The position numbers and the translations under genes were made by a program. From NCBI GenBank assembly GCA_902781465.1, contig CACZJK010000003.1:12054-76053 (forward strand): a DNA stretch of 64,000 nucleotides. Reading direction: 5' to 3'. Positions within the stretch are counted from its first letter, which is position 1. Every line of letters begins with the position of its first letter. The notes under the pieces were generated by a model. The model was not told the origin of the DNA. It saw nothing but the letters and a program-made list of their open reading frames with translations, and did not search any database. Shown here in pieces: positions 5,388 to 62,919 of the stretch. The DNA is from an uncultured Pseudomonadota bacterium (lineage in GTDB: Bacteria; Pseudomonadota; Alphaproteobacteria; Rs-D84).

Positions 5388-8158
5388 TAAAGAAAATACT
5401 CTGTGCATTTTTAATGATAATGGTTTCAGGGATTGCAAATGCAAATATCCATATTGACGGCAAAACCGTCCGTAAAATAGTATTGGAACACATAGATAGT
5501 GAACATCAAGTTCCCGCATTACAAGAATACAATGTTCAGTTAAAAGCAACTGGTAATTTTACAATGTCAGCAGCTGGATTATACAAAGTATGCACAGCAG
5601 CAGGATGGGATATTGCAACACCAGACGGTAAAACAAAATGTGATAATTTTGTAAAAGCACTGGTTGCGGAATCAGACTATAAATATTATGAAATCTGTGG
5701 AAAGGACAAAGGCAAATCTGGTGGTACAGAATATTGTGTTGATAATGTGTTTTATTCATTAATTGGCGGTATCCAGGTCACAATGTTACAGGCAGACGGT
5801 TTATGTAAAGAATATGCACGTGTAAAATATAATGACGATATAGAATGTTCAACAAATACCCGCAAAGGCACGATAAATCCATTGAATGACTATGTAAAAT
5901 GCACATCTAAATTAAAACCAATATATTACGAATTCAAATTTGATGATGTGGTTGAAAGTTCGGATAAAACTGTATTAAAAGGTGTGTTAAAAGGTGTTGG
6001 TAAATTATACAATGTTGATATATCTGACCCTGGATGCACTGTGGAAAGAATGATAAATAATACGGCATGTTCAATTGGATATAAAACAACGGATACAAAT
6101 ATATGCAATCAAATCAATAATTCACTTAAAACATTTGGATATACATCAAAGGTTGAAAATGTATCACGTGCAGGCTTAAATTCTGAAAAGTTATGTGGTG
6201 TGCATAATATAATAATGACCAGTTCAAATCTTAAAACCGCATATGGAATACCAAATGATGTTTTCTATGACGGAATAATCCAAATGCAAGGTTCCAAAGA
6301 CATAAAAGAAGGTATAAAACAATATGTCACAGAAAAGATTAAACCAGAAGCATTAACCAGTTTTGAATGTATTTCTAATACTATCAAAATGCCATCAATC
6401 AAGGGCAAGAAAGATAATGATGATGTTTTGACGTGTTATGTAAATGGCAATCAAATAGACTTTGTCTTTGATGATTTAAGCGAAGCCAGCAAATTAAGAC
6501 AACAAGGTGCAAAAGAAGCGTTTCAATGCACATATAATGGTGGATTAATGACAGGCAAAAGATGTTTAAATGTTGGCGAAGAAGCCTGTAAGAAAATTGC
6601 CCAATCAACATTTTTGGTTCAGGAATGTCCAGATTGCAGTAAATTGTATTGGGATGGCAATATGTGTACATTACCTGGTGCGGCTGTATCAAATGCATTG
6701 GACAAAGGATTAAATATAGCACTGATTGTTGGTGGTGCGGCATTAAATATATTTGTTGCGATTGGCACAGGAGGAACAAGTACGGCAGTTGGCGGTGGAT
6801 TATTGTTTGTTGAAACGGTCGGTTCTGCAATTGAATTAGGCACAGAAATAAAAATGGATTTGGCAGCCGATAAATTCTTTGTTGAATCAAGCAAATGCCA
6901 CGATAAAACCTGTGCAAATGATTTAATAAAGAAACATTTACAAAGATTATCTAATTTTTATACCAGATTGACATATGCAGAAGAAAAAGCCGTAGATCAT
7001 GAAATGGCAAGATTGTTTAAATTAATCCCAGCGGAAGAATTATTTACAGTTGAAGCATTGGTAAAAGTTGACCAAGAAAATGGTGGTAAAAAACTTGCTT
7101 CTGTAAAAGACAATCAAAAAGGATTCTTTGATTCAAAATCATGGGAATCAGAGCAAATATGGCAAGCTGTTGGAATAACAATGCAAATGGCAAGTTTGTT
7201 CTATCAAATTGGTTCTTGGGCATTTGGTAAATCAGGTAAGACAGCAAAAGCCATGACAGAAGTTGCAGATGTATTGGATGATAAAGCAGATGATGGATTG
7301 AAACAACTTAGAGAAAAAGGATTGAATGTAGAACTTGATGACAAAGGAAGAATCGTATTTAAAGATCAATTAAATCACGATATTATGAGTAGTTTTTCTG
7401 ATATATCAGACGAAGCAGGAAGAATGAGAATTCAAGCAATGAAAGAAAAATACGGTATCAAATTTCATGACGGTGGGACATCTTTGTATATACCGGATGG
7501 TATTGGTGATATTATGAGAAAGGAATTAGGTGATTCTAATGTAGAAAAAGAGTTTTATGAGGAAGTAAGGAACTTTATATATGAATATCATGGTTTGTTA
7601 GGTGATCCTGTAGATATCGGTGATTTCAGAAGAGTAGAAGAATTAACGCCTAGCACCCCTCTTTCTACTGAAAAAACTGCGGCTTTACGGGAAAAATTTG
7701 GGTTAGCTCCTAAAACAACAAATGCAACTAGTTCTGTTGACGATGCTATTACATCTGGAAGCAACTCTGCTACACAAAGACACTCTGGTTTTAATATGGG
7801 AGATAACACACATACAACTACAACAAAATCAGAACCACAAACTAGTTTTCGTGATAAAATAAAAGCTCTTAACGAAAAATATGCAGGTCAAACACCGGAT
7901 CAAAGTGCTATACCTGTATCTTCAACACCTACACAAAAACGTTCTTGGGCAGAAATTCAGGCTGCGGCGGAAGATGCAGGAAGAGCAAGAATAGAAAAAT
8001 TCAAAGAAAAGTATAATTTATCTATGGAAAACAGACGTAAATATACTAAAGAACAATGGGAACAGATATTAGACCAAGAACTTGGTTATTCCGACATAGA
8101 AGATGTATTCAGAAAAGATTTTAGAAATGGGATGAGTAATTTCTATTGGAATCAATAA
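5384..8158 (+). CDS. Large secreted/membrane protein with a Cys-rich N-terminal region, Gly-rich hydrophobic core and duplicated C-terminal module
   Basis: The track ORF is 5366..8158. The ATG at 5384 gives signal peptide MIKKILCAFLMIMVSGIANA and overlaps the upstream stop (ATGA). About 20 Cys in the first ~440 aa. Hydrophobic segment LNIALIVGGAALNIFVAIGTGGTSTAVGGGLLF. The C-terminal repeat is listed separately. Confidence 0.75.
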   Translation: MIKKILCAFLMIMVSGIANANIHIDGKTVRKIVLEHIDSEHQVPALQEYNVQLKATGNFTMSAAGLYKVCTAAGWDIATPDGKTKCDNFVKALVAESDYKYYEICGKDKGKSGGTEYCVDNVFYSLIGGIQVTMLQADGLCKEYARVKYNDDIECSTNTRKGTINPLNDYVKCTSKLKPIYYEFKFDDVVESSDKTVLKGVLKGVGKLYNVDISDPGCTVERMINNTACSIGYKTTDTNICNQINNSLKTFGYTSKVENVSRAGLNSEKLCGVHNIIMTSSNLKTAYGIPNDVFYDGIIQMQGSKDIKEGIKQYVTEKIKPEALTSFECISNTIKMPSIKGKKDNDDVLTCYVNGNQIDFVFDDLSEASKLRQQGAKEAFQCTYNGGLMTGKRCLNVGEEACKKIAQSTFLVQECPDCSKLYWDGNMCTLPGAAVSNALDKGLNIALIVGGAALNIFVAIGTGGTSTAVGGGLLFVETVGSAIELGTEIKMDLAADKFFVESSKCHDKTCANDLIKKHLQRLSNFYTRLTYAEEKAVDHEMARLFKLIPAEELFTVEALVKVDQENGGKKLASVKDNQKGFFDSKSWESEQIWQAVGITMQMASLFYQIGSWAFGKSGKTAKAMTEVADVLDDKADDGLKQLREKGLNVELDDKGRIVFKDQLNHDIMSSFSDISDEAGRMRIQAMKEKYGIKFHDGGTSLYIPDGIGDIMRKELGDSNVEKEFYEEVRNFIYEYHGLLGDPVDIGDFRRVEELTPSTPLSTEKTAALREKFGLAPKTTNATSSVDDAITSGSNSATQRHSGFNMGDNTHTTTTKSEPQTSFRDKIKALNEKYAGQTPDQSAIPVSSTPTQKRSWAEIQAAAEDAGRARIEKFKEKYNLSMENRRKYTKEQWEQILDQELGYSDIEDVFRKDFRNGMSNFYWNQ
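7421..8150 (+). repeat. Internal protein-level duplication in the 930-aa ORF
   Basis: RMRIQAMKEKYGIKFHDG...MRKELGDSNVEKEFYEEVRNFIYEY (nt ~7421-7590) versus RARIEKFKEKYNLSMEN...LDQELGYSDIEDVFRKDFRNGMSNFY (nt ~7981-8150). Confidence 0.55.
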
Positions 8159-25045: not shown

Positions 25046-27496
25046 TTATTTTACTTCTATCGGTGGGAAACAATCGCCGCCACCATCTGGACAACAATTG
25101 AAACCTGCTTCACCCATATCTGTATATGTTTCGCCAGCACAGCAACCGTTTGTATCTGGGGCACTGCCGTCGTCACATGTTAAAACTTCTTCGGCAACAG
25201 CATTATTAGGCGTTTCCCAAGGATTCAACATATTGCCTTCGTCATCATATTGTAATCCAAGGATATCTTGTGCATATGCCTTTGATTGTTCTTCGTTTCC
25301 TGTGTATACTAAACCGTCTTCTTGATTCCAAGTCATAGAACCATATGTTTCTTGTTTCTTTTGTGATTGAGCTTGAATATTAGCGTTATAAGCATTTTGC
25401 TTCGCCATATTTTTAGACTGATAGTTTTGTGATTCACAATACGCCAAAACAGTTCTGTAATCATAACCAGATTCGCCCCAATTTGCGTTTTTATCAATCG
25501 TGATTTTACCATTACTGTCCTGGGTACAATATTGATTCAAGTTAAATGAACGTATTTGTCCACGCCATGAAGGATCATCTGCGCCAACAAATTCTACTTT
25601 CTTTAAGTCAGACCATTTACGACGGTGTTCGGAAGCATAGGTTGTAAATGCACATTTTTTACCAGGATTTTCTTCTTCATCACATGTGACAATCAAATCC
25701 ACAGGTGAATATACATTGATACGTGTTCCGGCGGCGATTGAAAACGGTGGAACTGTATTATCAATTGCATCTACTAATAATTTTTGTGTGATTTTATTCC
25801 ATGTGTTGATAATATCTTGTTTTGCCATTTCAGATGAACGAATTGTTCCTGATTGAACAATTGTATTATTATCCAAATCAATTTGATTTATAACTGTATC
25901 TGTAATAGGCGCAATCATATTAACCGCCGCAGGAACAAGTGCCGTTAATATTGGCATAAACATCTGTTCTACATAGTCTGTGCTGCCATGTCCAGGAACC
26001 CCCATACGACCTTGGGCATCCGCAGAATATGGATCTTGGCCTTCGTCAAAATTGAATTCTACGCCATCTGGACGAATAAATTGATACCATTTTATATTCA
26101 TACGACCGAATGCCTGATATGGCCCAGGTAATCTTCCGTCCAAATATCCCATTAATAATGTTCCAGTTGGCAATATTATTGTGCGTCCATCATCAGAAAA
26201 AACGTTTCTGTCCACTGTTGCACGAACAGGTATGCTATAATTTTTATCTGGATCACAGTTTTGTCCTGATTTATCACAGCCATAAACACTTGGGTCTGCG
26301 CGAACTTCGGATACAATAGTCGCAGGAATTGGTTTAAATTGACGTAATATAAATGTTCTGTCGAATGGACGTGAAGATGTGACAGATTCGCTGCCAAAAC
26401 CAGAACCTTTCAAGGCTGCTTTATCAAAATCTTTTTGTTCGCCCCAAACAATGCCACCGTCAACACCATTACCACCTGCATCCCAATTTGCGTTTTCACC
26501 AAAAGTACCATTGCTGGCCGGTGCAACAAAAGATTTAGGAGTACCTAATTGAGGAACACTTAAACTGCGTGAACGAACATTTCTGTATCCGATATGATCT
26601 GAATCTGTACCGATTTTAGAACCGTCTTCTAATGAAGTTATAATGCCTGTTGTTATATCATAACGACCAGTTGGGTTAGAACAGTCTTTGTCAGAAAAAG
26701 GATGGAAATAGTTTGCACCACGTTCTGGTTTTATCCAACCAATTTGACGACCGGATTGATCGTATCCAGGAATTGCGAATTCAGAACATTTTTCAGGTGG
26801 CAAAACAAATTCTTTTTCTTCCTTTAACGGGTTTTTCACAGCAATAGTTTTTATTTCTTCCGCTGCTTTTTCAACGATTGGTTCTGGTTCGTATTCGATT
26901 TCGTCTTCTTCTTCTTTAACCTCTTCAACAACAGGTTTTGGTGCAGGAGCAACTTTTTTTTCAATGACAGGTTCTGCCTTTTTTTCTTCCTGTTTCCAAG
27001 AAGAATATTTTACTTCTACTTCCTGAGTCTTTACGATTTCAGATTGAGATTCAATAAACCAATTTATTTTCAGTATTGTATCAGATTCTTTTTGAACAAC
27101 GCTTGGGCGATAGATAACATTGATAATACAAACATCGGTTAAATTATCGCAATTATCAGTTGTAGTTATGCCATCAACATCGATATCGATATCTTTGATA
27201 ACAACAGGTGCATTGACAGCCACATTGATGCTTTTGCTGACTGATTTTCCAACCTCTGTCCCGGTTAAATCAATTGTTTCAGGATTGACAGTAAAAGAAA
27301 CATTTTCATTCATATTATCGGCAGATGTTGTCCCGGATTTATGTCCCAACAACAAAACCAACAATATAATAACAACAACAAAAGCCGCGCCCAACAATAT
27401 CCATTGGATATGTTTTGGAGTGTTTGTTTTAAATTCTTTAAATTGTTGTTTTAAACTTTTCATTTCTTTCTTTACTGTATTCTTACCACATGACAA
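25046..27496 (-). CDS. virB10: Type IV secretion system protein VirB10/TrbI family, unusually long (816 aa)
   Basis: N-terminal TM (WILLGAAFVVVIILLVLLL), Pro/Glu/Lys-rich linker (APAPKPVVEEVKEEEDEIEYEPEP), TrbI-like core (ILPTGTLLMGYLDG...QGRMGVPGHGSTDYVEQMFMPILTALV). There is an extra ~200-aa C-terminal extension ending in a Cys-rich tail. An alternative ATG at 27463 would remove the 25-nt overlap with virB9. Confidence 0.85.
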   Translation of the reverse strand: MSCGKNTVKKEMKSLKQQFKEFKTNTPKHIQWILLGAAFVVVIILLVLLLGHKSGTTSADNMNENVSFTVNPETIDLTGTEVGKSVSKSINVAVNAPVVIKDIDIDVDGITTTDNCDNLTDVCIINVIYRPSVVQKESDTILKINWFIESQSEIVKTQEVEVKYSSWKQEEKKAEPVIEKKVAPAPKPVVEEVKEEEDEIEYEPEPIVEKAAEEIKTIAVKNPLKEEKEFVLPPEKCSEFAIPGYDQSGRQIGWIKPERGANYFHPFSDKDCSNPTGRYDITTGIITSLEDGSKIGTDSDHIGYRNVRSRSLSVPQLGTPKSFVAPASNGTFGENANWDAGGNGVDGGIVWGEQKDFDKAALKGSGFGSESVTSSRPFDRTFILRQFKPIPATIVSEVRADPSVYGCDKSGQNCDPDKNYSIPVRATVDRNVFSDDGRTIILPTGTLLMGYLDGRLPGPYQAFGRMNIKWYQFIRPDGVEFNFDEGQDPYSADAQGRMGVPGHGSTDYVEQMFMPILTALVPAAVNMIAPITDTVINQIDLDNNTIVQSGTIRSSEMAKQDIINTWNKITQKLLVDAIDNTVPPFSIAAGTRINVYSPVDLIVTCDEEENPGKKCAFTTYASEHRRKWSDLKKVEFVGADDPSWRGQIRSFNLNQYCTQDSNGKITIDKNANWGESGYDYRTVLAYCESQNYQSKNMAKQNAYNANIQAQSQKKQETYGSMTWNQEDGLVYTGNEEQSKAYAQDILGLQYDDEGNMLNPWETPNNAVAEEVLTCDDGSAPDTNGCCAGETYTDMGEAGFNCCPDGGGDCFPPIEVK

Positions 27497-28914
27497 CTTG
27501 CGCCACTGAACTTTAACAATTGATCACACAATTTTTGTGCCGTATCAATATCTGATAAAGGTCCAATGCGTAAACGATATAAACGTGCAGTTACAGAATC
27601 AGAACCTAAATCACCAACGCCTTGTTCGTCAACTGCAAAGAATACGCTGTTTTTGTATGGGCTTAAAATACCTTCGCCATCGTCGCCACTGAATTTAGCC
27701 AACAAACTGGTCCAGTAATCATTTAATGCCTTTACAGATGTATCTGATTTCAATTCAATTGCAACACCTGTTTGATTGCTGGTTATCAATGGAATATTTG
27801 TTTGTGGCAGATAAGAACCCGCAGTCATACGTGCAGTTGGAATCATTGATGCGCCAGATGCACTTGGCATAACATCTGGTTGATTAGAAACATACATTGG
27901 TGTAGCACTGTAATCCATAATGCTTTGATCGATAGCATATTGTTCATCGCCATAGGCCATCGCGTTCAAAGATTGATTCGCCGCCATTGATTGTGCAACA
28001 TTTGCTTCTGCCAAAGCCATAACAGATGCTGTATCTGCAATCAAGAAAGGTTTAGCGCGTTTTTTAATACATACAATTCTTTGCCCACTGCGCAATACCA
28101 TATCACCAACCGCTTCGACAATCAGTAAACGACCATCTTCGCCGTCTGTACGGAAACCAACAGGGCTTTCGCCACCTTCGACCAACAAAGATACAACAGG
28201 ACGTTGAGTCATAGAAATAACTTTGTCGCCGAAATCGATATAAGTGAATATGCGGTCGCGCCATACACGTTCAGGTGCGATAACATAATCATCTGGGTTT
28301 GGAACGAAAATATCCAAATCGAAACGGAATTCAGACGGATCAATTTTCATAGTTTTAATCCATCCATAATCTTCGCCATCAACACCAACTGTGGAAGTTG
28401 TTGGGGCGGCCTTTGTAAATATAGAACCCATAGAACCAGCAGTCGCGGCACTGTTCGCAGCAATTGCGTTTGAAGCACCCGCCAAAGAAACATCAACCTG
28501 GGAATAAGTGATTTCACTGGAATTCACAGGATATGCGCGTAAATAGAAAATGTAAGTATTACCAGATTGGCCAGTCACAATCATATTTGTATCATTACCC
28601 TGGTTCGCAGATGCTGGTGTAATATACATTGTGCGGCCACCTTTATCAGGTTTTACTTCAAATAAACCGTCATTACCAACAACCGCATCAGCAATCTTTT
28701 CGCCATTTGGTAATGTGACCAAAGTAGCCATACCTGCGCGGGTTTTGATTGGTAAAACCGTTCCTGTTGACCAAGTAAGGTTTGCATAACCTGGCTTAGT
28801 AGAACCGGCAGACATATTTGCGTTTGGGTTGTCCCAGGCCGCCTGAAAATCAGCCATTGCCGGGAAAGCACAGCATAACACAGCCAACAAAGAAATACTA
28901 AATTTAAAAGTCAT
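27472..28914 (-). CDS. virB9: Type IV secretion system protein VirB9/TrbG/CagX family fused to a C-terminal SPOR-like domain (480 aa)
   Basis: Signal peptide. VirB9 signature region ITPASANQGNDTNMIVTGQSGNTYIFYLRAYP. The C-terminal ~95 aa show a SPOR-like pattern (LYRLRIGPLSDIDTAQKLCDQL...CHVVRIQ). Confidence 0.85.
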   Translation of the reverse strand: MTFKFSISLLAVLCCAFPAMADFQAAWDNPNANMSAGSTKPGYANLTWSTGTVLPIKTRAGMATLVTLPNGEKIADAVVGNDGLFEVKPDKGGRTMYITPASANQGNDTNMIVTGQSGNTYIFYLRAYPVNSSEITYSQVDVSLAGASNAIAANSAATAGSMGSIFTKAAPTTSTVGVDGEDYGWIKTMKIDPSEFRFDLDIFVPNPDDYVIAPERVWRDRIFTYIDFGDKVISMTQRPVVSLLVEGGESPVGFRTDGEDGRLLIVEAVGDMVLRSGQRIVCIKKRAKPFLIADTASVMALAEANVAQSMAANQSLNAMAYGDEQYAIDQSIMDYSATPMYVSNQPDVMPSASGASMIPTARMTAGSYLPQTNIPLITSNQTGVAIELKSDTSVKALNDYWTSLLAKFSGDDGEGILSPYKNSVFFAVDEQGVGDLGSDSVTARLYRLRIGPLSDIDTAQKLCDQLLKFSGASCHVVRIQ

Positions 28915-28943: not shown

Positions 28944-29636
28944 TTACCAAGATGCTGTATCTGAATCAAGTGGGTCGCCACGTCCATCCAAAACATCGTA
29001 TTGAACAACCTGAATCCCCAGCGGATTATCGCGCAGTTTTTCCAGGTAATCCAACGTTCCAGATGTATTTTCATCCAGATCAGATTTTATCCTTATTTGT
29101 ATCTTATAATTTTTTTGCGTGGTCTGTCCACCAATATTTTCACAAAGCCAGGTAAATTTTACATTATATGTGTCATTAGACATTCTTAATACCGGTTCGT
29201 CATTATTTGGACTGGAAAAATTGACACTGCAAGAAATGTTAGGCAATTGTTCGCCCAATGCGAATTCTTTATACAGTTTTGTTTGAACCAATTTTTCAAA
29301 AACTTTATTTGACGACCAAGGTTTTACAATACGCGACCAATTTTTGCGTGTGATTCCTGGTTGTGTAGAAAGTGTATTACGCGCGATTACATATTCACGT
29401 ATAAAGCCAGCCTTGTACCGATTAAGGGCGTTTTTATTACTGTTGTCCGGGACCAATGGTTCAATAATAACATTTGCCGAACGGGTAGGGGTCTGTAAAA
29501 AGAAAACTTCCGGTCTTTCCAGCGGTATCATTTTCCACAAAGTGAACACCATTGCGCACATCACAACAATCGACGTAGCCAGTACAAACGTCAATATTCT
29601 GGACAGCAAAACAGGTGGTTCTACCGTTTTTACCAC
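28944..29636 (-). CDS. virB8: Type IV secretion system protein VirB8 family
   Basis: 230 aa. GTG start 7 nt after AGGAG. Single N-terminal TM, periplasmic domain ending with the VirB8-like NPLGIQVVQY motif. Sits directly upstream of virB9-virB10. Confidence 0.75.
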   Translation of the reverse strand: MVKTVEPPVLLSRILTFVLATSIVVMCAMVFTLWKMIPLERPEVFFLQTPTRSANVIIEPLVPDNSNKNALNRYKAGFIREYVIARNTLSTQPGITRKNWSRIVKPWSSNKVFEKLVQTKLYKEFALGEQLPNISCSVNFSSPNNDEPVLRMSNDTYNVKFTWLCENIGGQTTQKNYKIQIRIKSDLDENTSGTLDYLEKLRDNPLGIQVVQYDVLDGRGDPLDSDTASW

Positions 29637-29711
29637 AAGAGACTCCTACATATTTACACAGATTGTAGACAATTTTATTCACATAGCGCAAGCAAAAAAT
29701 GAAGTAATTTT

Positions 29712-30482
29712 TTACCGATTTGTTTCCATACTGTCATCAAAGACAGAATAAGTATTATTTTCAAAACTTACTTTTAATTTTCTTTCGGTTGAAATATTCA
29801 TTGGTATATCGGCCAGGGTCATATTCGCAGAATAAATATTTCCATTTACATTTATATATAAACGATGCTCGCTTGGGTGCGCTGGCGTTTGATGTAAATA
29901 GATTATTTCGTTGCCAATATGTAAAATGCGACCACATTGTGTGGCGGTCCACATACCGGCCGGCGCGAAAGGATGTTCAACCGGGCAGGGTGTTATACCC
30001 TGAGTAGTTGTTTCGTTAAAAGTATAAGTTCCACCCGAACAATAATTATCGCTTTGGCATTTTGTACAATTATCAACACCGGCCGGTAAATAATACCCCG
30101 GGGTACAGGTATGAACATTTGGGGTGAATACAGGGCTTATATTTGCGGTATTATTTAATGATTTTGTAAAATCTGTTCTGCACCCATTTTTTATATCCGA
30201 GGTGATAAAAGTTTTGAATTTAGCGCCCTGGGTATCAGTTTCGTTAAAAGTAAAATTGCCACCATTACAATCATAATATTCAGGACATATAACACAACCA
30301 TCATTATTTGCCGGAACATAATAACCGGAATTACATTGATATTGGTTTGGTGTAAATGTAGCCGATAAATAAGTGTCATTATTTAAACCAGACGAACAAC
30401 CGTTTGGAACGTTGGATATAATCAAATCATCCGCAAATGCAGATATTGGTAATATTAAAAAGATAAATAATAAGTTTTTCAT
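29712..30482 (-). other. B1 module: potentially independently translated Cys-rich secreted protein (256 aa)
   Basis: Internal ATG at 30482 gives MKNLLFIFLILPISAFADD (signal peptide). Followed by two ~70-aa Cys-rich repeats and a C-terminal domain. Confidence 0.5.
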
Positions 30483-31397
30483 TTGTGTCTTTTTTTGATT
30501 CTCCCCTTGGGGGGAGAGGGCCCGCAGGGCGAGGGAGGTTAAGATTCCAGATAACTTATTATCAGTGAACCCTCCCCCCGGCTGCGCCGCACCCCCTCCA
30601 AAGGGGGATTCTGTTAATACTGGGCCCGCTATAAATTGTCCTGTGCCTTGGTTGTAATAAAATTTCCCTTCTACTTTGTCAAACATACATGGGACACCAT
30701 CTTCATCAAGAACAGGAATAAAATCACGAACAAGAACGTCGTTTTCCCATATTTTTGCATAAAATATTTTTGCTGTTGAAATTTCACTCGGGCTATCTCC
30801 CCCACTATATTTATGGCCTGCAAACAAATATAATGAATGCGTTCGTTCAAATACACCAGACTGTGTATAGGTGTTTATTTGGTTTAATGTTTCGTTATTT
30901 TGAATTATTTGTGCAGATGTTGACATAACTTGTATTGAAGCGGTAATAACATCAGAATTCCTGCATTCCGCATTTGTAATATGATAACTGTTAAAATAGT
31001 ATATACATTTGTTATTTTGTACAACTAAAGGTGCGAAATAACTATATTGTACATTTGATGCTCTTGTTGAAGTTAGACCAGCAAAATCCATCGTACCAGA
31101 AGACAACGATTGTACTCTTATTTTAAATTTTGTTCCTATTTTTGGAATATATTCTGTATCAATATATTGTGTTCCTGTGCTTTCAAGATATTCAATCGGT
31201 GTATAGTTTACTATTTCCCACCCAGTAAATGTATATCCATATTTTGTTGGTGGGGTGGTGGGTATATTTAAATCACTATCAACAGTGCAGGTTGAATTTT
31301 GATATGTTGAACCATCTTCATTTAACCAATGCAGGTTTATAGTATCGGCGTATGCCCCAAAACACAATATTGATAATAATACTAAAAACTTTTTCAT
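29712..31397 (-). CDS. Read-through ORF fusing a List-Bact-repeat-like secreted protein (A1) to a Cys-rich repeat protein (B1)
   Basis: Track ORF 29712..31409. The ATG at 31397 gives signal peptide MKKFLVLLSILCFGAYA. The N-terminal half is paralogous to 62920..63642 and the C-terminal half to 63639..>64000. The halves are joined by a 45-codon GC-rich linker with no stop codon, and B1's own ATG and signal peptide are retained internally at 30482. Confidence 0.7.
   Translation of the reverse strand: MKKFLVLLSILCFGAYADTINLHWLNEDGSTYQNSTCTVDSDLNIPTTPPTKYGYTFTGWEIVNYTPIEYLESTGTQYIDTEYIPKIGTKFKIRVQSLSSGTMDFAGLTSTRASNVQYSYFAPLVVQNNKCIYYFNSYHITNAECRNSDVITASIQVMSTSAQIIQNNETLNQINTYTQSGVFERTHSLYLFAGHKYSGGDSPSEISTAKIFYAKIWENDVLVRDFIPVLDEDGVPCMFDKVEGKFYYNQGTGQFIAGPVLTESPFGGGAAQPGGGFTDNKLSGILTSLALRALSPQGENQKKTQMKNLLFIFLILPISAFADDLIISNVPNGCSSGLNNDTYLSATFTPNQYQCNSGYYVPANNDGCVICPEYYDCNGGNFTFNETDTQGAKFKTFITSDIKNGCRTDFTKSLNNTANISPVFTPNVHTCTPGYYLPAGVDNCTKCQSDNYCSGGTYTFNETTTQGITPCPVEHPFAPAGMWTATQCGRILHIGNEIIYLHQTPAHPSEHRLYINVNGNIYSANMTLADIPMNISTERKLKVSFENNTYSVFDDSMETNR
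29982..30404 (-). repeat. Tandem ~70-aa Cys-rich repeats in B1
   Basis: NGC..LNN...TFTPNQYQCNSGYYVPANNDGCVICPEYYDCNGGNFTFNETDTQG versus NGC..LNN...VFTPNVHTCTPGYYLPAGVDNCTKCQSDNYCSGGTYTFNETTTQG. The same unit occurs in B2. Confidence 0.8.
30495..30612. repeat. GC-rich imperfect palindromic (MITE/REP/RPE-like) element
   Basis: Left arm ctccccttggggggagagggcccgcagggcgagggaggttaag. AT-rich centre attccagataacttattatca. The right arm gtgaaccctccccccggctgcgccgcaccccctccaaaggggga is roughly the reverse complement of the left. GATTCT is directly repeated at both ends (30497, 30606). GC content contrasts sharply with the flanks. Confidence 0.65.
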
Positions 31398-31665
31398 CCT
31401 TTCCCCCATTGTTTGGTGTCGCCTTGTAGGGGTTTTTGTTTGATTGTCTTTTTATTCCCATGGCAATAAACAAAAACCGCGCTTATGATAAAGGCGGTTG
31501 GAGGTCAAAGACTATTTATTAGCAGAAAATAGCGTGCTTATTCTGCCCAAATGAAACAGATGGACATTATTCGCAACCCTCCAACCCAAATATTGGAGGA
31601 ATTTTACGTCCCCGCGGACGCTGCTAATATACGAGGTCTTTGCTCCCCAACACATATTCTGTGTC
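31398..31665 (-). promoter_or_regulatory. Long structured 5' leader (candidate attenuator/riboswitch), copy 1
   Basis: Hairpin cgtccgcggggacg (31607-31620). Segment 1 cctccaa (31593-31599). Segment 2 ggttggagg (31578-31586). Segment 3 cctccaacc (31496-31504), overlapping the terminator arm. Blocks shared with 62715-62919. Confidence 0.5.
31467..31499 (-). terminator. Leader terminator hairpin plus T-run (copy 1)
   Basis: Minus-strand sense: AACCGC-ctttatcataagc-GCGGTT followed by TTTGTTT. Lies ~70 nt upstream of the A1 start. Confidence 0.45.
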
Positions 31666-31671
31666 AAACGA

Positions 31672-31701
31672 ATTATAACATATAAATATAACTTTCTGCA
31701 A
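31672..31701 (-). promoter_or_regulatory. Sigma70-like promoter (TTGCAG-N18-TATAAT) for the A1/B1 leader
   Basis: -35 at 31696-31701 and -10 at 31672-31677 (minus strand). Same architecture as 62680-62708. Confidence 0.5.
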
Positions 31702-31712
31702 TACTTTTTCGC

Positions 31713-31741
31713 TTGCGTAAAAAAGTGAAAACCTTTATAAT
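31713..31741 (+). promoter_or_regulatory. Sigma70-like promoter (TTGCGT-N17-TATAAT) upstream of tRNA-Trp
   Basis: -35 at 31713-31718 and -10 at 31736-31741. Back-to-back with the divergent A1 promoter. Confidence 0.4.
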
Positions 31742-31852
31742 ATTTCCGCTTGATTTTTGATAATGGTGTGCTATGCTCTAAGCGATTATCAGTATAAAAT
31801 GGCATAAATGCCGGGGTGTTGGTATGGATTGCAAAGCATAGACGAGTTATAG

Positions 31853-31926
31853 AGGGGCTTAGTTCAACGGTAGAATATCGGTCTCCAAAACCGCGGATGA
31901 GGGTTCGATTCCTTCAGCCCCTGCCA
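31853..31926 (+). tRNA. trnW: tRNA-Trp (anticodon CCA)
   Basis: 74 nt. Acceptor AGGGGCT/AGCCCCT, D arm GTTC/GAAT, anticodon loop CTCCAAA, T arm GAGGG-TTCGATT-CCTTC, encoded CCA. Confidence 0.93.
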
Positions 31927-31965
31927 GAAAAAAACTGATAAAACGCGCGAAACCTAGGAAAAAAT

Positions 31966-32145
31966 ATGAAAAAAATAATAGACTTTATAAAATCAGTACG
32001 CAGCGAATGGTTCAAAATCGTTTGGCCAACGCGTGAAACTGTTATTCATACTACATTTATGATATTGTTATTTTCTGGTTTGGCCGCTTTGTTCTTTTTT
32101 GTTGTAGACAGCATTTTAAATGCTTTGGTGAACTGGATATTCTAA
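31966..32145 (+). CDS. secE: Preprotein translocase subunit SecE (59 aa; below the ORF-track cutoff)
   Basis: MKKIIDFIKSVRSEWFKIVWPTRETVIHTTFMILLFSGLAALFFFVVDSILNALVNWIF. Has the KV.WP.R.E motif plus a single TM. Canonical position between tRNA-Trp and nusG. Confidence 0.88.
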   Translation: MKKIIDFIKSVRSEWFKIVWPTRETVIHTTFMILLFSGLAALFFFVVDSILNALVNWIF

Positions 32146-39250: not shown

Positions 39251-39288
39251 TGGCCGGGCCACGGGTGGTTCCCCCACCCGCCGGCCAC
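39250..39288 (+). other. Strong GC-rich hairpin immediately after the rpoB stop
   Basis: GTGGCCGG-(gcca bulge)-CGGGTGG ttcc CCCACCCG-CCGGCCAC. No T-run follows. Confidence 0.6.
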
Positions 39289-39324
39289 AAGGCACTTTTA
39301 GTGACTTAAAAGGAGCAAAAAAAC

Positions 39325-45332: not shown

Positions 45333-47726
45333 TTAGTCAGAATTCTTTAAGCATTTCAGATTATCTAATGTTGTTTCATTACCTGTTAAGTAATAATCTG
45401 AATATCCTTCTGGGCAAGAACATGTTGTTGCCTGGCCACCAGCAGATACTGTTTGAATTGTGCTGCCAGTCACCGCGGTATAAGAGCATGTATCGCCAGT
45501 GCATTGTTTCTTGTATTCTTGTGCCATAGGACAATATTTACATTCTGTTTTTCCTTTGCCATCTGCATTATCTTTTAAGTAATAATTAGCAGAGCAGTTT
45601 ATCAACATACTTGAAACCCAATCGTTCATTGCGCGCAATGTCAATTTTGTTCCGTCTTTTGGTGTGTATCCGCCAACAGACATACATGTTGTGATTTCAG
45701 AAGAACATGCATTGACCGCGGTTCTTGATACTGTTGATGCTGTGTTAGATTCATCGTATCCATTTGTGGACAAGCAAGATTGAACGTCAGCACGACATCC
45801 TTCGGCATAATCTGCCAAAATTGCATCTTGTTGAACTTTGATTTTTGCCAATGTGTTTGTTAAATACATACGAACAACTTCATTAGCAGGGATATATTTC
45901 TTGGTCGATTTTTGACTGTTGAATGTGTAATCTTGACATTGTTTCATCACAGATGCGCACATACCATGAACTTTGTCTTCGCCGTCAATATAACCGATTT
46001 TTTGCAACAAGTACAATGCCATGTTATCTGTTTTTGTCGAATCTTTATAAGATGTATAGTTGCTTTTCCAATCTGTTAAAGCATCATCAATATATCCACC
46101 AAGGTTTTCTTTGGCACCAATACTCCATGCATTCAAACCTGAACCATAATTCCAAGTGGAATACAAATCATACATACCACCACTTGTCCATTCTGTGCTT
46201 GATGGGTCATAGTCGTTTTCATTTTTGTTTTGACCGCCAGAAACGCCTGGTGTTCCACCCTTTACAATTTCGCCGTTGGCCAAATATTTACCAGTTGGAT
46301 CAAGGCATAATTCGTAATCAGAACCGCAAACATATTCGTCTTGCATACAAGAATCAATTGCCGCGACACAACCACGTAAATCATAAGAATTTTTGTTTTG
46401 TGTCAATAACAAACGTGCCTGTTGCAAGATGTTGGTAGCATTTACAACATTGTTTTTCATTTCTGTATTTGCTTCGTTCAAACTGCGTTCGTAAGCAATA
46501 CATTGTTTATCAATTTCCAAATCATAAGAATTGGTGATAACATTCGCATCAATACCTTGTGCTGTGCAAGAATTCAAAACAGTAGCCTTGCAACGATTTG
46601 TTGCGGTCTTGTACAATTGTTCGCCACGTTGATTAGAAACACTGTTTGTAGCGTTGTTATTTGTTCCAAGGAATGAATTCAAATCAAAACTGGACGAAAA
46701 ATCAGCACTTAATAAACCAGAAACATCCAAAGAAATACCATTGGTCACATCAGTTGCTGCTGCGTTTGGAGAAGATACATCAACAACTTTCTTTTTGATT
46801 GCATCCAAACTTGTTTTCAAACGTGAAGAATCAGAATTCGATTTCATTGCCAATTCTGCTTCCGTTTCAGCAAATAATGCTTCAATTTGAGAACCTGTTA
46901 AACCGATGTATTTAATTTTTTGAACGGCTTCTTGGAATTGTTCTGTTGCCGCTGCTAATGCTGCTTCTGTTTTTGCATAATTTTTCAAATTCTTTGAACA
47001 AGAACAACGACCTTGATTGTCATCCAAGACATTACAATAATTATCCATACATGCCGCATATTGCGCCTTGCAGTAATCTGTCAATTCGGCAATGGCTGTC
47101 AAATTTTCTGTTGTTTCTTTGACTTCTGCTTCTGTGACGGTAGGTATAGAAGATGTCAAAGATGAAGAGCTGGCACGTGCAGTTGCACGACGATTGCCAA
47201 CACCAACACGTGCTGCATTTGGATTGTATAAAGCATTACCAGAATCATTTAATGTTTGTTGTGAAGAATATGAAATATTACGGTTGCCAGTCATAACTGA
47301 ATTATTAGATGTTCCAACGCGCGCAGTCACTGGTTTAGCAGACGTTGCACCACGTGCGGTCACTGTTGCGCGTGAAGATGCAGCCCTGCTGACCACGCCA
47401 GATGGACGTGCGGCGCGCGATACTGTTCCGCGGGATGTCACAGACGCAGAACGTGGGGATGCCGCCATTGCGCGTGAAGATGTATTAGCGCGAGATGCTG
47501 TATTCGCAGACGATATAGCGCGAGATGCAGTTGTTGAACGATTGATTGTATTACGTTGCGCAACGCTTTTTGCCACAGGTGCATTTTGTGTTGTTTCGCT
47601 GGCGATTTCTTCGTCATCAAGCATTTCGTCTGTGTATTCGACAATTTCATCGTAATATACCGGCGCGACCTCTGCAAATGCAGGCAAAACCAACAAACTA
47701 CTTAATACAGTTATAAATCTTTTCAT
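45333..47726 (-). CDS. Large secreted protein with acidic N-terminus, Ser/Arg/Ala-rich degenerate repeats and a Cys-rich body
   Basis: 797 aa. Signal peptide MKRFITVLSSLLVLPAFA. Repeats such as TASRAISSANTASRANTSSRAMAASPRSASVTSRGTVSRAARPSGVVSRAASSRATVTARG. Many paired cysteines (CKAQYAAC, CVAAIDSC, CASVMKQC, CRADVQSC, CSSEITTC). No family recognised. Confidence 0.75.
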   Translation of the reverse strand: MKRFITVLSSLLVLPAFAEVAPVYYDEIVEYTDEMLDDEEIASETTQNAPVAKSVAQRNTINRSTTASRAISSANTASRANTSSRAMAASPRSASVTSRGTVSRAARPSGVVSRAASSRATVTARGATSAKPVTARVGTSNNSVMTGNRNISYSSQQTLNDSGNALYNPNAARVGVGNRRATARASSSSLTSSIPTVTEAEVKETTENLTAIAELTDYCKAQYAACMDNYCNVLDDNQGRCSCSKNLKNYAKTEAALAAATEQFQEAVQKIKYIGLTGSQIEALFAETEAELAMKSNSDSSRLKTSLDAIKKKVVDVSSPNAAATDVTNGISLDVSGLLSADFSSSFDLNSFLGTNNNATNSVSNQRGEQLYKTATNRCKATVLNSCTAQGIDANVITNSYDLEIDKQCIAYERSLNEANTEMKNNVVNATNILQQARLLLTQNKNSYDLRGCVAAIDSCMQDEYVCGSDYELCLDPTGKYLANGEIVKGGTPGVSGGQNKNENDYDPSSTEWTSGGMYDLYSTWNYGSGLNAWSIGAKENLGGYIDDALTDWKSNYTSYKDSTKTDNMALYLLQKIGYIDGEDKVHGMCASVMKQCQDYTFNSQKSTKKYIPANEVVRMYLTNTLAKIKVQQDAILADYAEGCRADVQSCLSTNGYDESNTASTVSRTAVNACSSEITTCMSVGGYTPKDGTKLTLRAMNDWVSSMLINCSANYYLKDNADGKGKTECKYCPMAQEYKKQCTGDTCSYTAVTGSTIQTVSAGGQATTCSCPEGYSDYYLTGNETTLDNLKCLKNSD
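47310..47558 (-). repeat. Coding low-complexity tract: degenerate [ST]-x-S-R-A repeats with Arg every 5-7 residues
   Basis: Residues ~57-139 of the 797-aa protein. It generates the spurious 187-aa antisense ORF at 47092..47655. Confidence 0.7.
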
Positions 47727-48825: not shown

Positions 48826-49755
48826 TTAAATTGAATCAAAGTTTTTGCGTATGATTTTTGCACTTTGACGCAGGGCGGCAGATTCTGATTTACTTAATTT
48901 TGTGCGCAAACTTGCCACTATACCATTTTCACCAACAATGCGTGGCATGGACATAGCAACCGCATTTTTTCCAATGCCTTCGACAATGGATGTGGTAAGT
49001 ATGCGTTTTTCGTCGTTGATTATTGCGTGTAATAAATCTGCGACTGCCGCGCCAATGCCGTCCCAGGTTGCGCCACGGCCACGAATTATTTCGTATGCAG
49101 CACTGCGAACGCGATGTTCAATGGTTTTACGAGTTGTTTGTGGCAGAGATATTTTTGTTTGCTTGCAAAAATCATCCAATGCGATTGCGCCAATGCTGGC
49201 AGATTCCCAATTTATCACCGAAGAATCACCATGTTCGCCCAATACATACGCATTGATAGAACGCGTTGATACGCCAAGGTGTCGCGATAATATAACGCGC
49301 AAACGTGCTGAATCTAACATGGTCCCGGTGCCTATGACACGACCCGCAGGCAATTTAGATAATTTTTGTGCCAACATAACCATTACATCCAATGGATTCG
49401 TGACAACTATGATTTTTACTTTCTTGGCGTCAACATTAGCCATAACGCGTGGGATAATATCTTCGATAACTGCTGCGTTTTTATTCAATAAATCAGTGCG
49501 AGTTTCGCCTGGTTTTTGATTTGCGCCGGCAGCAATTATAACTATTTCACTGCCACGGATTACGCGATAAGAACTGGCGGCTGTGATTTTAATGTCGTAA
49601 GAAAATGCGCCGGCGTGACCTAAATCTTCTGCTGCGGCACGTGCGCGAACGCCGTCCCTGTCAAATAAAACTATTTCGTGGGCAAGTCCAGTATTTTGGA
49701 CTGCTGTTGCAACTGCTGAACCAACCGAACCAACACCTATGATTGCTATTTTCAT
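48826..49755 (-). CDS. ldh: L-lactate dehydrogenase (LDH/MDH superfamily)
   Basis: 309 aa. MKIAIIGVGSVGSAVA Rossmann motif. AGANQKPGETRTDL has Gln at the substrate-specificity position, as in LDH rather than MDH. Also GEHGDS. Confidence 0.85.
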   Translation of the reverse strand: MKIAIIGVGSVGSAVATAVQNTGLAHEIVLFDRDGVRARAAAEDLGHAGAFSYDIKITAASSYRVIRGSEIVIIAAGANQKPGETRTDLLNKNAAVIEDIIPRVMANVDAKKVKIIVVTNPLDVMVMLAQKLSKLPAGRVIGTGTMLDSARLRVILSRHLGVSTRSINAYVLGEHGDSSVINWESASIGAIALDDFCKQTKISLPQTTRKTIEHRVRSAAYEIIRGRGATWDGIGAAVADLLHAIINDEKRILTTSIVEGIGKNAVAMSMPRIVGENGIVASLRTKLSKSESAALRQSAKIIRKNFDSI

Positions 49756-62679: not shown

Positions 62680-62708
62680 TTGCACAGATGATAATTTGTC
62701 TATATAAT
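62680..62708 (+). promoter_or_regulatory. Sigma70-like promoter (TTGCAC-N17-TATAAT) for the A2/B2 leader
   Basis: -35 at 62680-62685 and -10 at 62703-62708. Same architecture as the A1 promoter. Confidence 0.5.
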
Positions 62709-62714
62709 TTACTA

Positions 62715-62919
62715 TGAATCATAAAAACAATGGTTCTGGGCTTAGAAATCCCATACAAAACCGTCTGCGCAGACGTTAAATGCTCCAACCCTCCATGGTT
62801 GGATGGTGGTGAATATATTGAATAATCCACGCAATTCGTTTTGTATTGTTTCTAACATCCAACCGCCTGTTTCTATGATTTGGCGGTATTTTTGTTGCCA
62901 AAAAAGGAAGGGAAACAAC
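62715..62919 (+). promoter_or_regulatory. Long structured 5' leader (candidate attenuator/riboswitch), copy 2
   Basis: Hairpin cgtctgcgcagacg (62762-62775). Segment 1 tccaacc (62784-62790). Segment 2 ggttggatg (62797-62805). Segment 3 catccaacc (62856-62864), overlapping the terminator arm. Confidence 0.5.
62862..62896 (+). terminator. Leader terminator hairpin plus T-run (copy 2)
   Basis: ACCGCC (62862-62867) pairs with GGCGGT (62882-62887), followed by ATTTTTGTT. Lies 24 nt upstream of the A2 ATG. Confidence 0.45.

Follow-up and report, generated by a model that had tools for sequence, protein, structure and literature searches.

Does the untranslated DNA in front of the secreted-protein gene A1 of an uncultured alphaproteobacterium of the order Rs-D84 encode an RNA switch, and could such a switch reach the type IV secretion system (T4SS) genes virB8, virB9 and virB10 further downstream? 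The DNA analysed here (the window) is a stretch of 64,000 nucleotides (nt) of contig CACZJK010000003.1 (assembly GCA_902781465.1, positions 12,054 to 76,053), and the leader in question lies between A1 and the divergent tRNA-Trp/secE/nusG/rplKAJL/rpoBC cluster. An initial annotation had proposed that three segments of this leader pair in mutually exclusive ways around an intrinsic terminator and so control A1, its neighbour B1 and possibly virB8-virB10. We consider it probable, at about 0.8, that the leader is a genuine cis-acting transcription-attenuation switch of a new RNA family.

All coordinates of this copy of the leader (copy 1) are on the minus strand, and its match to the covariance model described below spans 31469-31674. 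The elements are given in the order of transcription, with the kind of evidence in brackets.

31672-31701, minus strand: promoter, TTGCAG at 31701-31696, an 18-nt spacer and TATAAT at 31677-31672 (direct reading).
31649-31665, minus strand: P0, the 5'-terminal hairpin GACACA gaata TGTGTT (minimum free energy (MFE) fold).
31633-31648, minus strand: Pa hairpin, GGGG at 31648-31645, the 8-nt loop AGCAAAGA at 31644-31637 and CCTC at 31636-31633 (pair counts, permutation).
31621-31629, minus strand: 5' strand of helix P1b, TATTAGCAG, whose partner is CTGCTAATA at 31525-31517 (fold and permutation).
31607-31620, minus strand: P2, the GC hairpin CGTCC-GCGG-GGACG, about 46 nt into the RNA, an optional stem (direct reading and pair counts).
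31600-31606, minus strand: A-rich linker.
31578-31599, minus strand: P3, segment 1 (CCTCCAA, 31599-31593) with segment 2 ((GG)TTGGAGG, 31586-31578) (direct reading and pair counts).
31578-31586, minus strand: segment 2, GGTTGGAGG (direct reading).
31535-31576, minus strand: P4, 3-5 base pairs (bp), UGC at 31575-31573 with GCA at 31537-31535, and a conserved loop GAAUA...GAAUAA (GAAUAUAUUGAAUAA).
31544-31566, minus strand: hairpin inserted in the P4 loop of copy 1.
31532-31534, minus strand: conserved trinucleotide C(A/G)C.
31512-31532, minus strand: P5, CTATTT at 31532-31527 with AAATAG at 31517-31512 (pair counts, permutation).
31506-31511, minus strand: 3' strand of pseudoknot PK1, TCTTTG, whose partner is the Pa loop bases 31642-31637 (CAAAGA).
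31496-31504, minus strand: segment 3, CCTCCAACC (RNA: CCUCCAACC), the antiterminator strand, 73 nt after segment 2.
31467-31499, minus strand: intrinsic terminator, AACCGC at 31499-31494, a loop, GCGGTT at 31480-31475, TTTTTGTTT and a T-run to about 31467.
29712-31397, minus strand: the genes under putative control, A1 (secreted, with a Listeria-Bacteroides-repeat-like N-terminus) and B1 (Cys-rich, secreted), fused in the window.

The promoter, the GC hairpin (placed about 45 nt into the RNA by the initial annotation), the three segments and the terminator with its T-run were all found where they had been reported. The transcript is predicted to start near 31665, which gives a leader of about 268 nt, close to the proposed 265 nt, up to the likely A1 start ATG 31397; GGGGGAAAGG stands just before this codon, and a signal peptide begins with it. 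The bases AACC are common to segment 3 and the 5' arm of the terminator. The leader of copy 1 folded better than 200 of 200 dinucleotide shuffles (z = -4.6). Its promoter was absent from the output of a generic sigma-70 scan because the -35 hexamer fits at three of six positions only. TTGC-N17/18-TATAAT recurs about 7 nt 5' of the first hairpin across 107 aligned copies of the element, and the -35 part of this lineage consensus (about 100 leaders) agrees with TTGACA at TTG only and so is missed by generic sigma-70 scans.

A second copy (copy 2) was reached through A2, a paralogue of A1 at the right end of the window that was revealed by the near-identical contig L001. It is present in full upstream of A2 (ATG 62920) and B2 (ATG 63640).

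62680-62896, plus strand: copy 2 in full, with the model match at 62711-62894.
62680-62708, plus strand: promoter, TTGCAC at 62680-62685, a 17-nt spacer and TATAAT at 62703-62708.
62716-62736, plus strand: P0.
62738-62740 with 62750-62752, plus strand: Pa, GGG with CCC.
62742-62748 with 62849-62855, plus strand: PK1.
62753-62761 with 62838-62846, plus strand: P1b.
62762-62775, plus strand: P2.
62784-62790, plus strand: segment 1.
62797-62805, plus strand: segment 2.
62856-62864, plus strand: segment 3.
62863-62867 with 62882-62886, plus strand: terminator, CCGCC with GGCGG.

The P2 hairpin of copy 2 reads CGTCTG-CG-CAGACG and its segments read UCCAACC / GGUUGGAUG / CAUCCAACC; relative to copy 1, a G-to-U change in segment 2 is offset by a C-to-A change in segment 3. 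No nucleotide similarity between the two copies was detected by blastn, blastn-short or a repeat search. In MFE folds they share a multi-helix architecture with long-range helices wholly different in sequence. The covariance model R1, built from homologues, found exactly two copies in the window, at 114.1 bits (E about 4e-31) for copy 1 and 122.7 bits for copy 2, scores that are partly given by construction since both copies are in the seed alignment. Both cover model positions 1-181 and match full-length (Pa, PK1, P3, P4, P5, the complementarity of segments 2 and 3, and the terminator). Judged by structure and by the model, copy 2 is a true homologue of copy 1.

Near relatives of the locus were also compared. 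The closest orthologue, L047, comes from 'Ca. Enterousia sp. ruminal_MAG_27', to which the window is close, and holds A1-B1 orthologues at 70-82% nucleotide identity. PK1, P1b and P5 are all rewritten there with compensation; P1b is compensated in copy 2 as well. In a 97.5%-identical strain, 44 differences were counted over 1.6 kb, one of them inside the 200-nt leader RNA, in the P3 loop. The leader of copy 1 is better conserved between strains than the flanking DNA, and purifying selection on the RNA is visible in this comparison.

The same leader element is borne by the upstream regions of the nearest A/B homologues in other metagenomes (L007, L011). A genome scan with exact patterns fixing segments 2 and 3, one genome per species, returned at least 107 stretches, nearly all in metagenome-assembled genomes (MAGs) named Ca. 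Enterousia, 'Rickettsiales bacterium' or uncultured Alphaproteobacteria. These MAGs came from the rumen and from the guts of horses, humans, mice and termites, and a single MAG held as many as five or more copies. A metagenome scan anchored on the P4 loop only added at least 120 further stretches, and model R1 gave 115 matches at E < 1e-10 in 100 sources, some of them outside the search pattern. The stretches listed by the two scans belong almost entirely to the order Rs-D84 / 'Ca. Enterousia'. The order Rs-D84 has genomes under 1 Mb, without tricarboxylic acid cycle and respiration (PMC12306168).

Rfam 15 (4227 models, including curated riboswitches, T-box, leaders and small RNAs (sRNAs)) yielded, at gathering thresholds, two tRNAs only in the whole window and tRNAs only in 18 other motif-bearing loci. 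At E values up to 10, the region 31200-32000 returned just noise, namely eukaryotic microRNA and small nucleolar RNA models at 14-17 bits. Within the papers covered, literature searches with motif strings returned unrelated primers and probes only, no report of an Rs-D84 riboswitch was found, and the Enterousia papers have no RNA element in them. The leader is apparently a copy of an undescribed structured RNA family of Rs-D84, in agreement with the earlier statement that it fits no known riboswitch or leader class.

Among the 2.9 million contigs of IMG/VR one true copy was found, and a phage origin of the motif was rejected. This copy (L120 9519-9706, minus strand; 120 bits; IMGVR_UViG_3300009694_001054) belongs to a contig with a viral classification, lies some 1.8 kb away from an open reading frame (ORF; 6252-7688) that is terminase-like by eye alone, and is followed by genes for a 171-amino-acid protein and a lipoprotein; L120 may be a prophage or a mis-classified Rs-D84 contig. 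Full-length motifs before Cys-rich secreted proteins typical of Rs-D84 were seen in MAGs labelled Muribaculaceae (L013) and Bacteroides fragilis (L055), which are probably mis-binned contigs, and the motif could therefore serve as a lineage marker. Some copies cluster within a few kb in both orientations (L036 2381-2548, plus, and 6672-6844, minus; L061 374-543, 614-789 and 4828-5008). Each of these stands before near-identical small XRE genes, suggesting recent duplication of a leader-plus-gene cassette.

The pairings were tested without an alignment by comparing the duplex energy of a strand and its own partner with that obtained when partners were permuted among copies (500 permutations). 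The mean for PK1 was -3.87 kcal/mol with its own and -0.23 kcal/mol with permuted partners; the corresponding values were -3.43 and -1.30 kcal/mol for P4, -3.58 and -1.84 kcal/mol for P5, and -4.33 and -3.71 kcal/mol for Pa, and in all four the own partner beat 500 of 500 permutations. P1b, with 94 distinct 5' strands, gave -6.57 against -0.82 kcal/mol, the best of 500 permutations being -1.26. The P0 region had a mean of -8.5 kcal/mol against -2.8 when shuffled (102 distinct sequences). P0 as a DNA operator palindrome for XRE proteins was also considered and is unlikely, since its stem tolerates G-U pairs and its sequence is almost never repeated.

Pair counts were made on a model-guided alignment (A3). 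The set of pairings that leaves the terminator intact (state A: Pa, PK1, P2, P3, P4 and terminator) was paired in 95.4% of cells, with a covariation score of 0.398 against 0.153 for shuffled columns, which none of 500 shuffles reached, and 0.03-0.08 when the partner columns were slid. The alternative set (state B: Pa, PK1, P2, the helix of segments 2 and 3 (2:3), P4 and P5) was paired in 97.0% of cells with a score of 0.408. PK1 (columns 40-46:260-267) is not part of the model structure, yet it covaries strongly, with 99.4% of cells paired and double-sided changes at 6 of 6 pairs (e.g. AU 52, UA 22, GC 20, CG 17). Changes on both sides were also seen at 4 of 4 pairs of P2 (97% of cells paired), a stem present in 84 of 114 copies, and P4 covaries strongly at 4 of 4 pairs (e.g. 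CG 50, UA 41, UG 14). The Pa pair 35:50 was GC in 51 copies, AU in 32, GU in 25 and other in 4; pair 237:257 of P5 was UA in 71 and AU in 43. The paired cells amounted to 96.7% in P3, 97.9% in P5 and 99.4% in 2:3. Insertions in the P4 loop occur in 30 of 114 copies, copy 1 included, and the 3' arm of the terminator with its T-run is kept in 97 of 107.

The 2:3 helix was the sole prediction of RNAalifold on a MAFFT alignment, because MAFFT misaligns the variable helices. Since segments 2 and 3 had been held constant in the retrieval of most copies, this helix was tested on model-only copies and a P4-anchored metagenome sample in which segments 1-3 were unconstrained. At least eight fully compensated versions (segment 2:segment 3) were found there.

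GGUUGGAGG:CCUCCAACC, in 44 of 96.
GUCAGGAGG:CCUCCUG(A/G)C, in 13 of 96, and one GUCAGGGGG:CCUCCUGAC.
GGUUGGAGU:ACUCCAACC, in 7.
GGCAGGAGG:CCUCCUGCC, in 3.
GGCUGGAGG:CCUCCAGCC.
GGUUGGGGU:ACCCCAACC.
GGUUGGGGA:UCCCCAGCC.
GGUUGGGAU:AUCCCAACC.

Segment 1 tracks the variants of segment 2, for example CUCCUGA with GGUCAGGAGG, and CUCCUGC also occurs. Own partners beat 300 of 300 permutations both for 2:3 (-19.19 against -16.68 kcal/mol) and for the pairing of segments 1 and 2, 1:2 (-11.63 against -10.52 kcal/mol).

The two sets cannot coexist. P3 and 2:3 exclude each other because both use segment 2, 2:3 and the terminator because AACC is common to both, and P1b and P5 because the P5 loop and part of the P5 3' arm together make up the 3' strand of P1b. 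Both fold sets find support in the comparative data, as is characteristic of a switch. The topology put forward by the initial annotation, 1:2 with terminator against 2:3, was corroborated by this covariation across more than 100 relatives, and it is extended by our comparisons: the pseudoknot PK1, the long-range helix P1b and the competing hairpin P5 are added, and the GC hairpin is optional. Invariant nucleotides lie nearly all between segments 2 and 3 (segment 2, GGG, the P4 loop, C(A/G)C, the P5 stem, AAC, segment 3), whereas the 5' domain is conserved as a complement only and P2 is dispensable.

From these pairings we infer how termination might be modulated. Transcription would start about 7 nt past the promoter and yield a structured leader of about 200 nt with two exclusive folds. 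In state A the variable 5' domain would zip onto the conserved 3' domain at three places, through 1:2 (P3), through the strand after Pa with the P5-loop strand (P1b), and through the Pa loop with the strand just 5' of segment 3 (PK1). Segment 3 would then be free, the CCGCC/GGCGG hairpin with its U-run would form, and transcription would terminate at about 31467-31475, leaving A1-B1 off. In state B segment 3 would nucleate on two or three G's of segment 2 that are left unpaired in P3; these G's adjoin P4 and could be a toehold for the first-transcribed C's of segment 3. Displacement of segment 1 would give a 9-10-bp antiterminator that closes a three-way junction with P4 and P5 and takes AACC out of the terminator stem, so that polymerase could read into the gene. 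State A is the MFE structure of both window copies (-72.2 against -61.5 kcal/mol in copy 1 and -51.5 against -38.3 kcal/mol in copy 2; nested nearest-neighbour energies, with PK1 and co-transcriptional kinetics left out), and the default outcome should be termination.

Our best guess is that the gene is turned on when the state-B three-way junction is stabilised by an effector, be it a small molecule or a protein. The junction is favoured as the sensor because of where the invariant nucleotides are, almost all of them between segments 2 and 3, and because the 5' domain is retained as a complement only; this domain would act as a copy-specific anti-antiterminator. The polarity may also be the opposite, with an effector locking the state-A junction or the pseudoknot, and the data fit a protein or RNA effector just as well as a small molecule. 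A ligand-binding riboswitch is accordingly a tentative proposal, to which we give somewhat less than an even chance. In the same tentative form, the leader would be a new orphan riboswitch whose state-B junction (2:3, P4 with the GAAUAUAUUGAAUAA loop, and P5) binds an intracellular signal, for example a nucleotide second messenger or a metabolite from a partner or host, and turns on surface-protein, outer membrane protein (OMP), pilin-like and XRE genes genome-wide, possibly including virB8-virB10 by read-through. The 5' zipper (P3, P1b and pseudoknot) would set the default to off and prevent cross-talk among paralogous leaders, in hosts with obligately dependent lifestyles and genomes below 1 Mb.

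Several points weigh against the leader being a switch of this kind. Termination and read-through are predicted from sequence alone, and the stems of the terminators have a length of just 5-6 bp. With PK1 left out, state B lies 10-13 kcal/mol above state A, so that switching would need a factor or a kinetic window. Alignment A3 was fitted to part of the structure tested on it (Pa, P2, P3, P4, P5 and terminator), that is, to all but PK1 and 2:3. The sequences are mostly MAGs of one order, so that part of the conservation is relatedness, and many copies were retrieved with segments 2 and 3 or the P4 loop fixed by the pattern. The products encoded downstream (93 examined) form no coherent pathway or transport group and point to no metabolite.

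These downstream genes were examined for what they encode and for their distance from the motif. An ORF start on the same strand, preceded by a Shine-Dalgarno sequence, lies within 110 nt in 90 of the 101 copies with enough downstream sequence, at a median of 48 nt from the CCAACCGCC end of the motif; in copy 1 the gene begins about 70 nt past the terminator U-run. Small proteins with a Cro/C1-type helix-turn-helix (HTH; Pfam HTH_31 / HTH_3), mostly of about 70-120 amino acids (cluster range 51-153), account for 38 of the 93 products, and the A-like secreted family with a Listeria-Bacteroides-repeat N-terminus for 23. The remainder mostly have signal peptides and include OMP beta-barrel or Opacity-like proteins, type-IV-pilin-like N-termini and Cys-rich proteins, as well as one UvrD-like helicase and one weak TrbC/VirB2-like match (E = 0.007, short of the Pfam threshold). 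The HTH genes seem to be monocistronic: no conserved operon partner was found behind them, and their neighbours are unrelated housekeeping genes. We infer from this gene set that the motif would define regulon-wide control of envelope and secreted-protein genes and XRE genes in Rs-D84.

The same gene association bears on a trans-acting role. An independent sRNA gene of about 200 nt, acting for instance through the exposed anti-Shine-Dalgarno-like CCUCC of segment 3, would explain the conserved promoter and terminator that bracket the structured RNA at the sequence level, the single-stranded segment 3 of the ground state A, the several copies per genome, and a next gene start that is sometimes distant (about 270 nt in L007, 70 nt in copy 1). 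We hold it to be unlikely, although a dual role is conceivable, since the same-strand Shine-Dalgarno-led starts at a median of 48 nt are the signature of a 5' leader, and selection keeps a second fold whose evident effect is to dismantle the terminator, which a pure sRNA would not need.

Less probable again is a constitutive structured 5' untranslated region, serving as mRNA stabiliser, processing site or partial-terminator insulator without any switching. Stabilising elements typically have a 5'-terminal hairpin such as P0, and state A has a strong thermodynamic advantage. A static structure would keep one set of helices, however, whereas P3 with P1b and 2:3 with P5 are both kept by compensation, and segment 3 invariably overlaps the terminator arm.

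Even less probable is a selfish or neutral dispersed repeat, comparable to a miniature inverted-repeat transposable element or a repetitive extragenic palindrome (REP), that happens to carry promoter-like and hairpin sequence. The element is indeed multi-copy, intergenic and limited to one lineage, and GC-rich palindromic repeats adjoin some copies. Its copies are nevertheless so diverged that the window pair has no blastn match while every helix is kept by compensation, they keep a constant orientation and spacing to the start codon downstream, neither terminal repeats nor target duplications were seen, and between strains the leader varies less than its flanks.

Leader-peptide attenuation of the trp/his type, suggested by the 1:2 / 2:3 / terminator topology, by segment 2 as a perfect Shine-Dalgarno mimic and by a 9-codon ORF of copy 1 (MSICFIWAE, 31568-31539) whose AUG lies 10 nt past the GGAGG of segment 2 and which ends at the conserved UAA, was rejected and is the least probable of these alternatives. 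Among 107 copies no start codon with a Shine-Dalgarno sequence before it is conserved, the copy 1 ORF belongs to an inserted hairpin of a kind seen in just 30 of 114 copies, the peptide of copy 2 is unrelated to that of copy 1, and the sole recurrent ORF (4-22 codons) starts at a UUG inside the invariant segment 2. This UUG frame (31584-31539; UUG GAG GGN ... GAA UAA) has a median of 8 codons, lacks a Shine-Dalgarno sequence upstream and often runs up to the conserved UAA in the P4 loop; it probably arises only because the sequence is invariant.

If the leader is an attenuation switch, as we favour, its reach beyond A1-B1 is a separate question. The T4SS genes follow B1 on the same strand.

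28944-29636, minus strand: virB8 (Pfam VirB8).
27472-28914, minus strand: virB9 (Pfam CagX/VirB9).
25046-27496, minus strand: virB10 (Pfam TrbI/VirB10).
29655-29690, minus strand: promoter-like site of virB8, TTGCGC, an 18-nt spacer and TACAAT, about 20 nt before the virB8 GTG 29636 (a call from the sequence only).

A1, B1, virB8, virB9 and virB10 are all on the minus strand, as the initial annotation had it. No terminator is predicted on this strand between B1 and virB8, so that read-through from the leader promoter is possible, and a good predicted terminator lies past virB10 (24911-24885). At L030 the motif is followed by a different secreted-protein gene and then directly by homologous virB8-9-10, suggesting that the order of motif gene and virB8-10 is not accidental. 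On the other side, the promoter-like site before virB8 and its counterpart TTGCGT-N18-TACAAT at L030 2009-2038, both of which match the lineage promoter consensus and lie about 20-30 nt 5' of the virB8 GTG, suggest that virB8-10 may have a promoter of their own. The A1-B1 orthologues of L047 have no virB genes downstream, and the genes of the family are not those of a T4SS; among the loci examined, L030 alone besides the window has virB8-10 downstream, which does not indicate a general link between motif and T4SS. The remaining window genes that were checked have housekeeping functions. Control of virB8-10 by the leader, which had been raised as a possibility, is possible through read-through only.

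A1 and B1 themselves, annotated as two co-oriented genes, are co-oriented but not separate in the window: together with a GC-rich intergenic element they form a single ORF of 565 amino acids (29712-31409, minus strand). The 278-kb contig L001, otherwise identical, contains 7 nt (ATTATTA on the plus strand, L001 4444-4450) that are missing from the window at 30606 and carry the TAATAA stop codons of A1. The fused ORF may reflect a difference between strains or assemblies, or else a repeat element may have joined the two genes in frame. The GC-rich palindromes between A1 and B1 lie at 30499-30540 and 30565-30613 (at least 75% GC in a genome of 36.5% GC), and their 29-mer GGAGGGGGTGCGGCGCAGCCGGGGGGAGG is identical at L007 6127-6155, between the leader terminator and the start of the A-homologue. 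They look like a mobile intergenic repeat of the REP or Rickettsia palindromic element (RPE) kind. More GC islands were noted at 47380-47419 and 49040-49083. A GC-rich hairpin in the rpoB-rpoC spacer, GTGGCCGGGCCACGGGTGGTTCCCCCACCCGCCGGCCAC at 39251-39289, may belong to the same class of palindromes or be an attenuator-like structure.

The family described here adds an abundant, well-supported and apparently uncurated RNA to the short list of orphan riboswitch and attenuator candidates, and it is uncommon for both conformations to be traceable in the comparative record. It would give a first regulatory handle on the uncultured Rs-D84 / Ca. Enterousia, which are widespread in ruminant, horse, human and termite guts. 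Its putative regulon of envelope, secreted and small XRE proteins comprises the genes likeliest to mediate contact with host or partner cells. As a lineage marker, the motif has already flagged the probable mis-binning of the contigs labelled Muribaculaceae and Bacteroides fragilis.

How does the leader compare with known systems? As in riboswitches, a conserved covarying domain in a 5' leader is combined with a terminator that is exclusive with a helix of the sensor domain. The pbuE/ydhL adenine-type ON riboswitch is similar in that the 3' strand of its closing helix (here 2:3) doubles as the 5' arm of the terminator, that the closing helix encloses two hairpins (here P4 and P5) in a three-way junction, and that the 5' leader stands right behind the promoter. 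Unlike pbuE/ydhL, our leader is without sequence or model similarity in Rfam, it has a dedicated upstream domain that base-pairs with the sensor domain in three places, including a pseudoknot, and its genes encode envelope proteins and XRE regulators rather than a metabolic pathway. The trp, his and pheA attenuators likewise decide between termination and read-through by overlapping 1:2, 2:3 and terminator pairings; in contrast to them the leader is without a conserved ORF and far more elaborate, as it contains conserved loops, the pseudoknot and as many as four additional helices.

Class I and II riboswitches for cyclic di-GMP (c-di-GMP) occur many times per genome before pilin, adhesin, surface-protein and regulator genes, and are often terminator-based. 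Their gene context, non-biosynthetic surface and regulator genes in many copies, resembles that of the leader; however, the leader did not match RF01051 or RF01786 at the thresholds tried and has another architecture. ANTAR targets, the ribonucleic antiterminator (RAT) of BglG/SacY, PyrR and TRAP are like the proposed leader in that a trans-acting factor stabilises a hairpin overlapping the terminator and allows read-through, and systems of this sort can control many operons. ANTAR targets consist of two small hexaloop hairpins, whereas the P4 loop of the leader has at least 15 nt and its P5 loops are variable, with 7-10 nt; tandem hexaloop stem-loops with the second overlapping the terminator were not found in the leader, nor was an Rfam match. 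RAT-like or triplet-repeat features are likewise absent from it. In SAM-II and preQ1-II riboswitches, as in the leader, a hairpin loop pairs with a downstream strand beside the regulatory sequence. The PK1 sequence of the leader, by contrast, varies from copy to copy and looks like a copy-specific clamp, not a conserved ligand pocket.

Going by its predicted pairings, the leader works like a terminator/antiterminator riboswitch or an attenuator that stands outside every curated Rfam family. Its unusual traits are the three-point 5' zipper with a copy-specific pseudoknot, the selection on both conformers, and a putative envelope/XRE regulon in a minimal genome.

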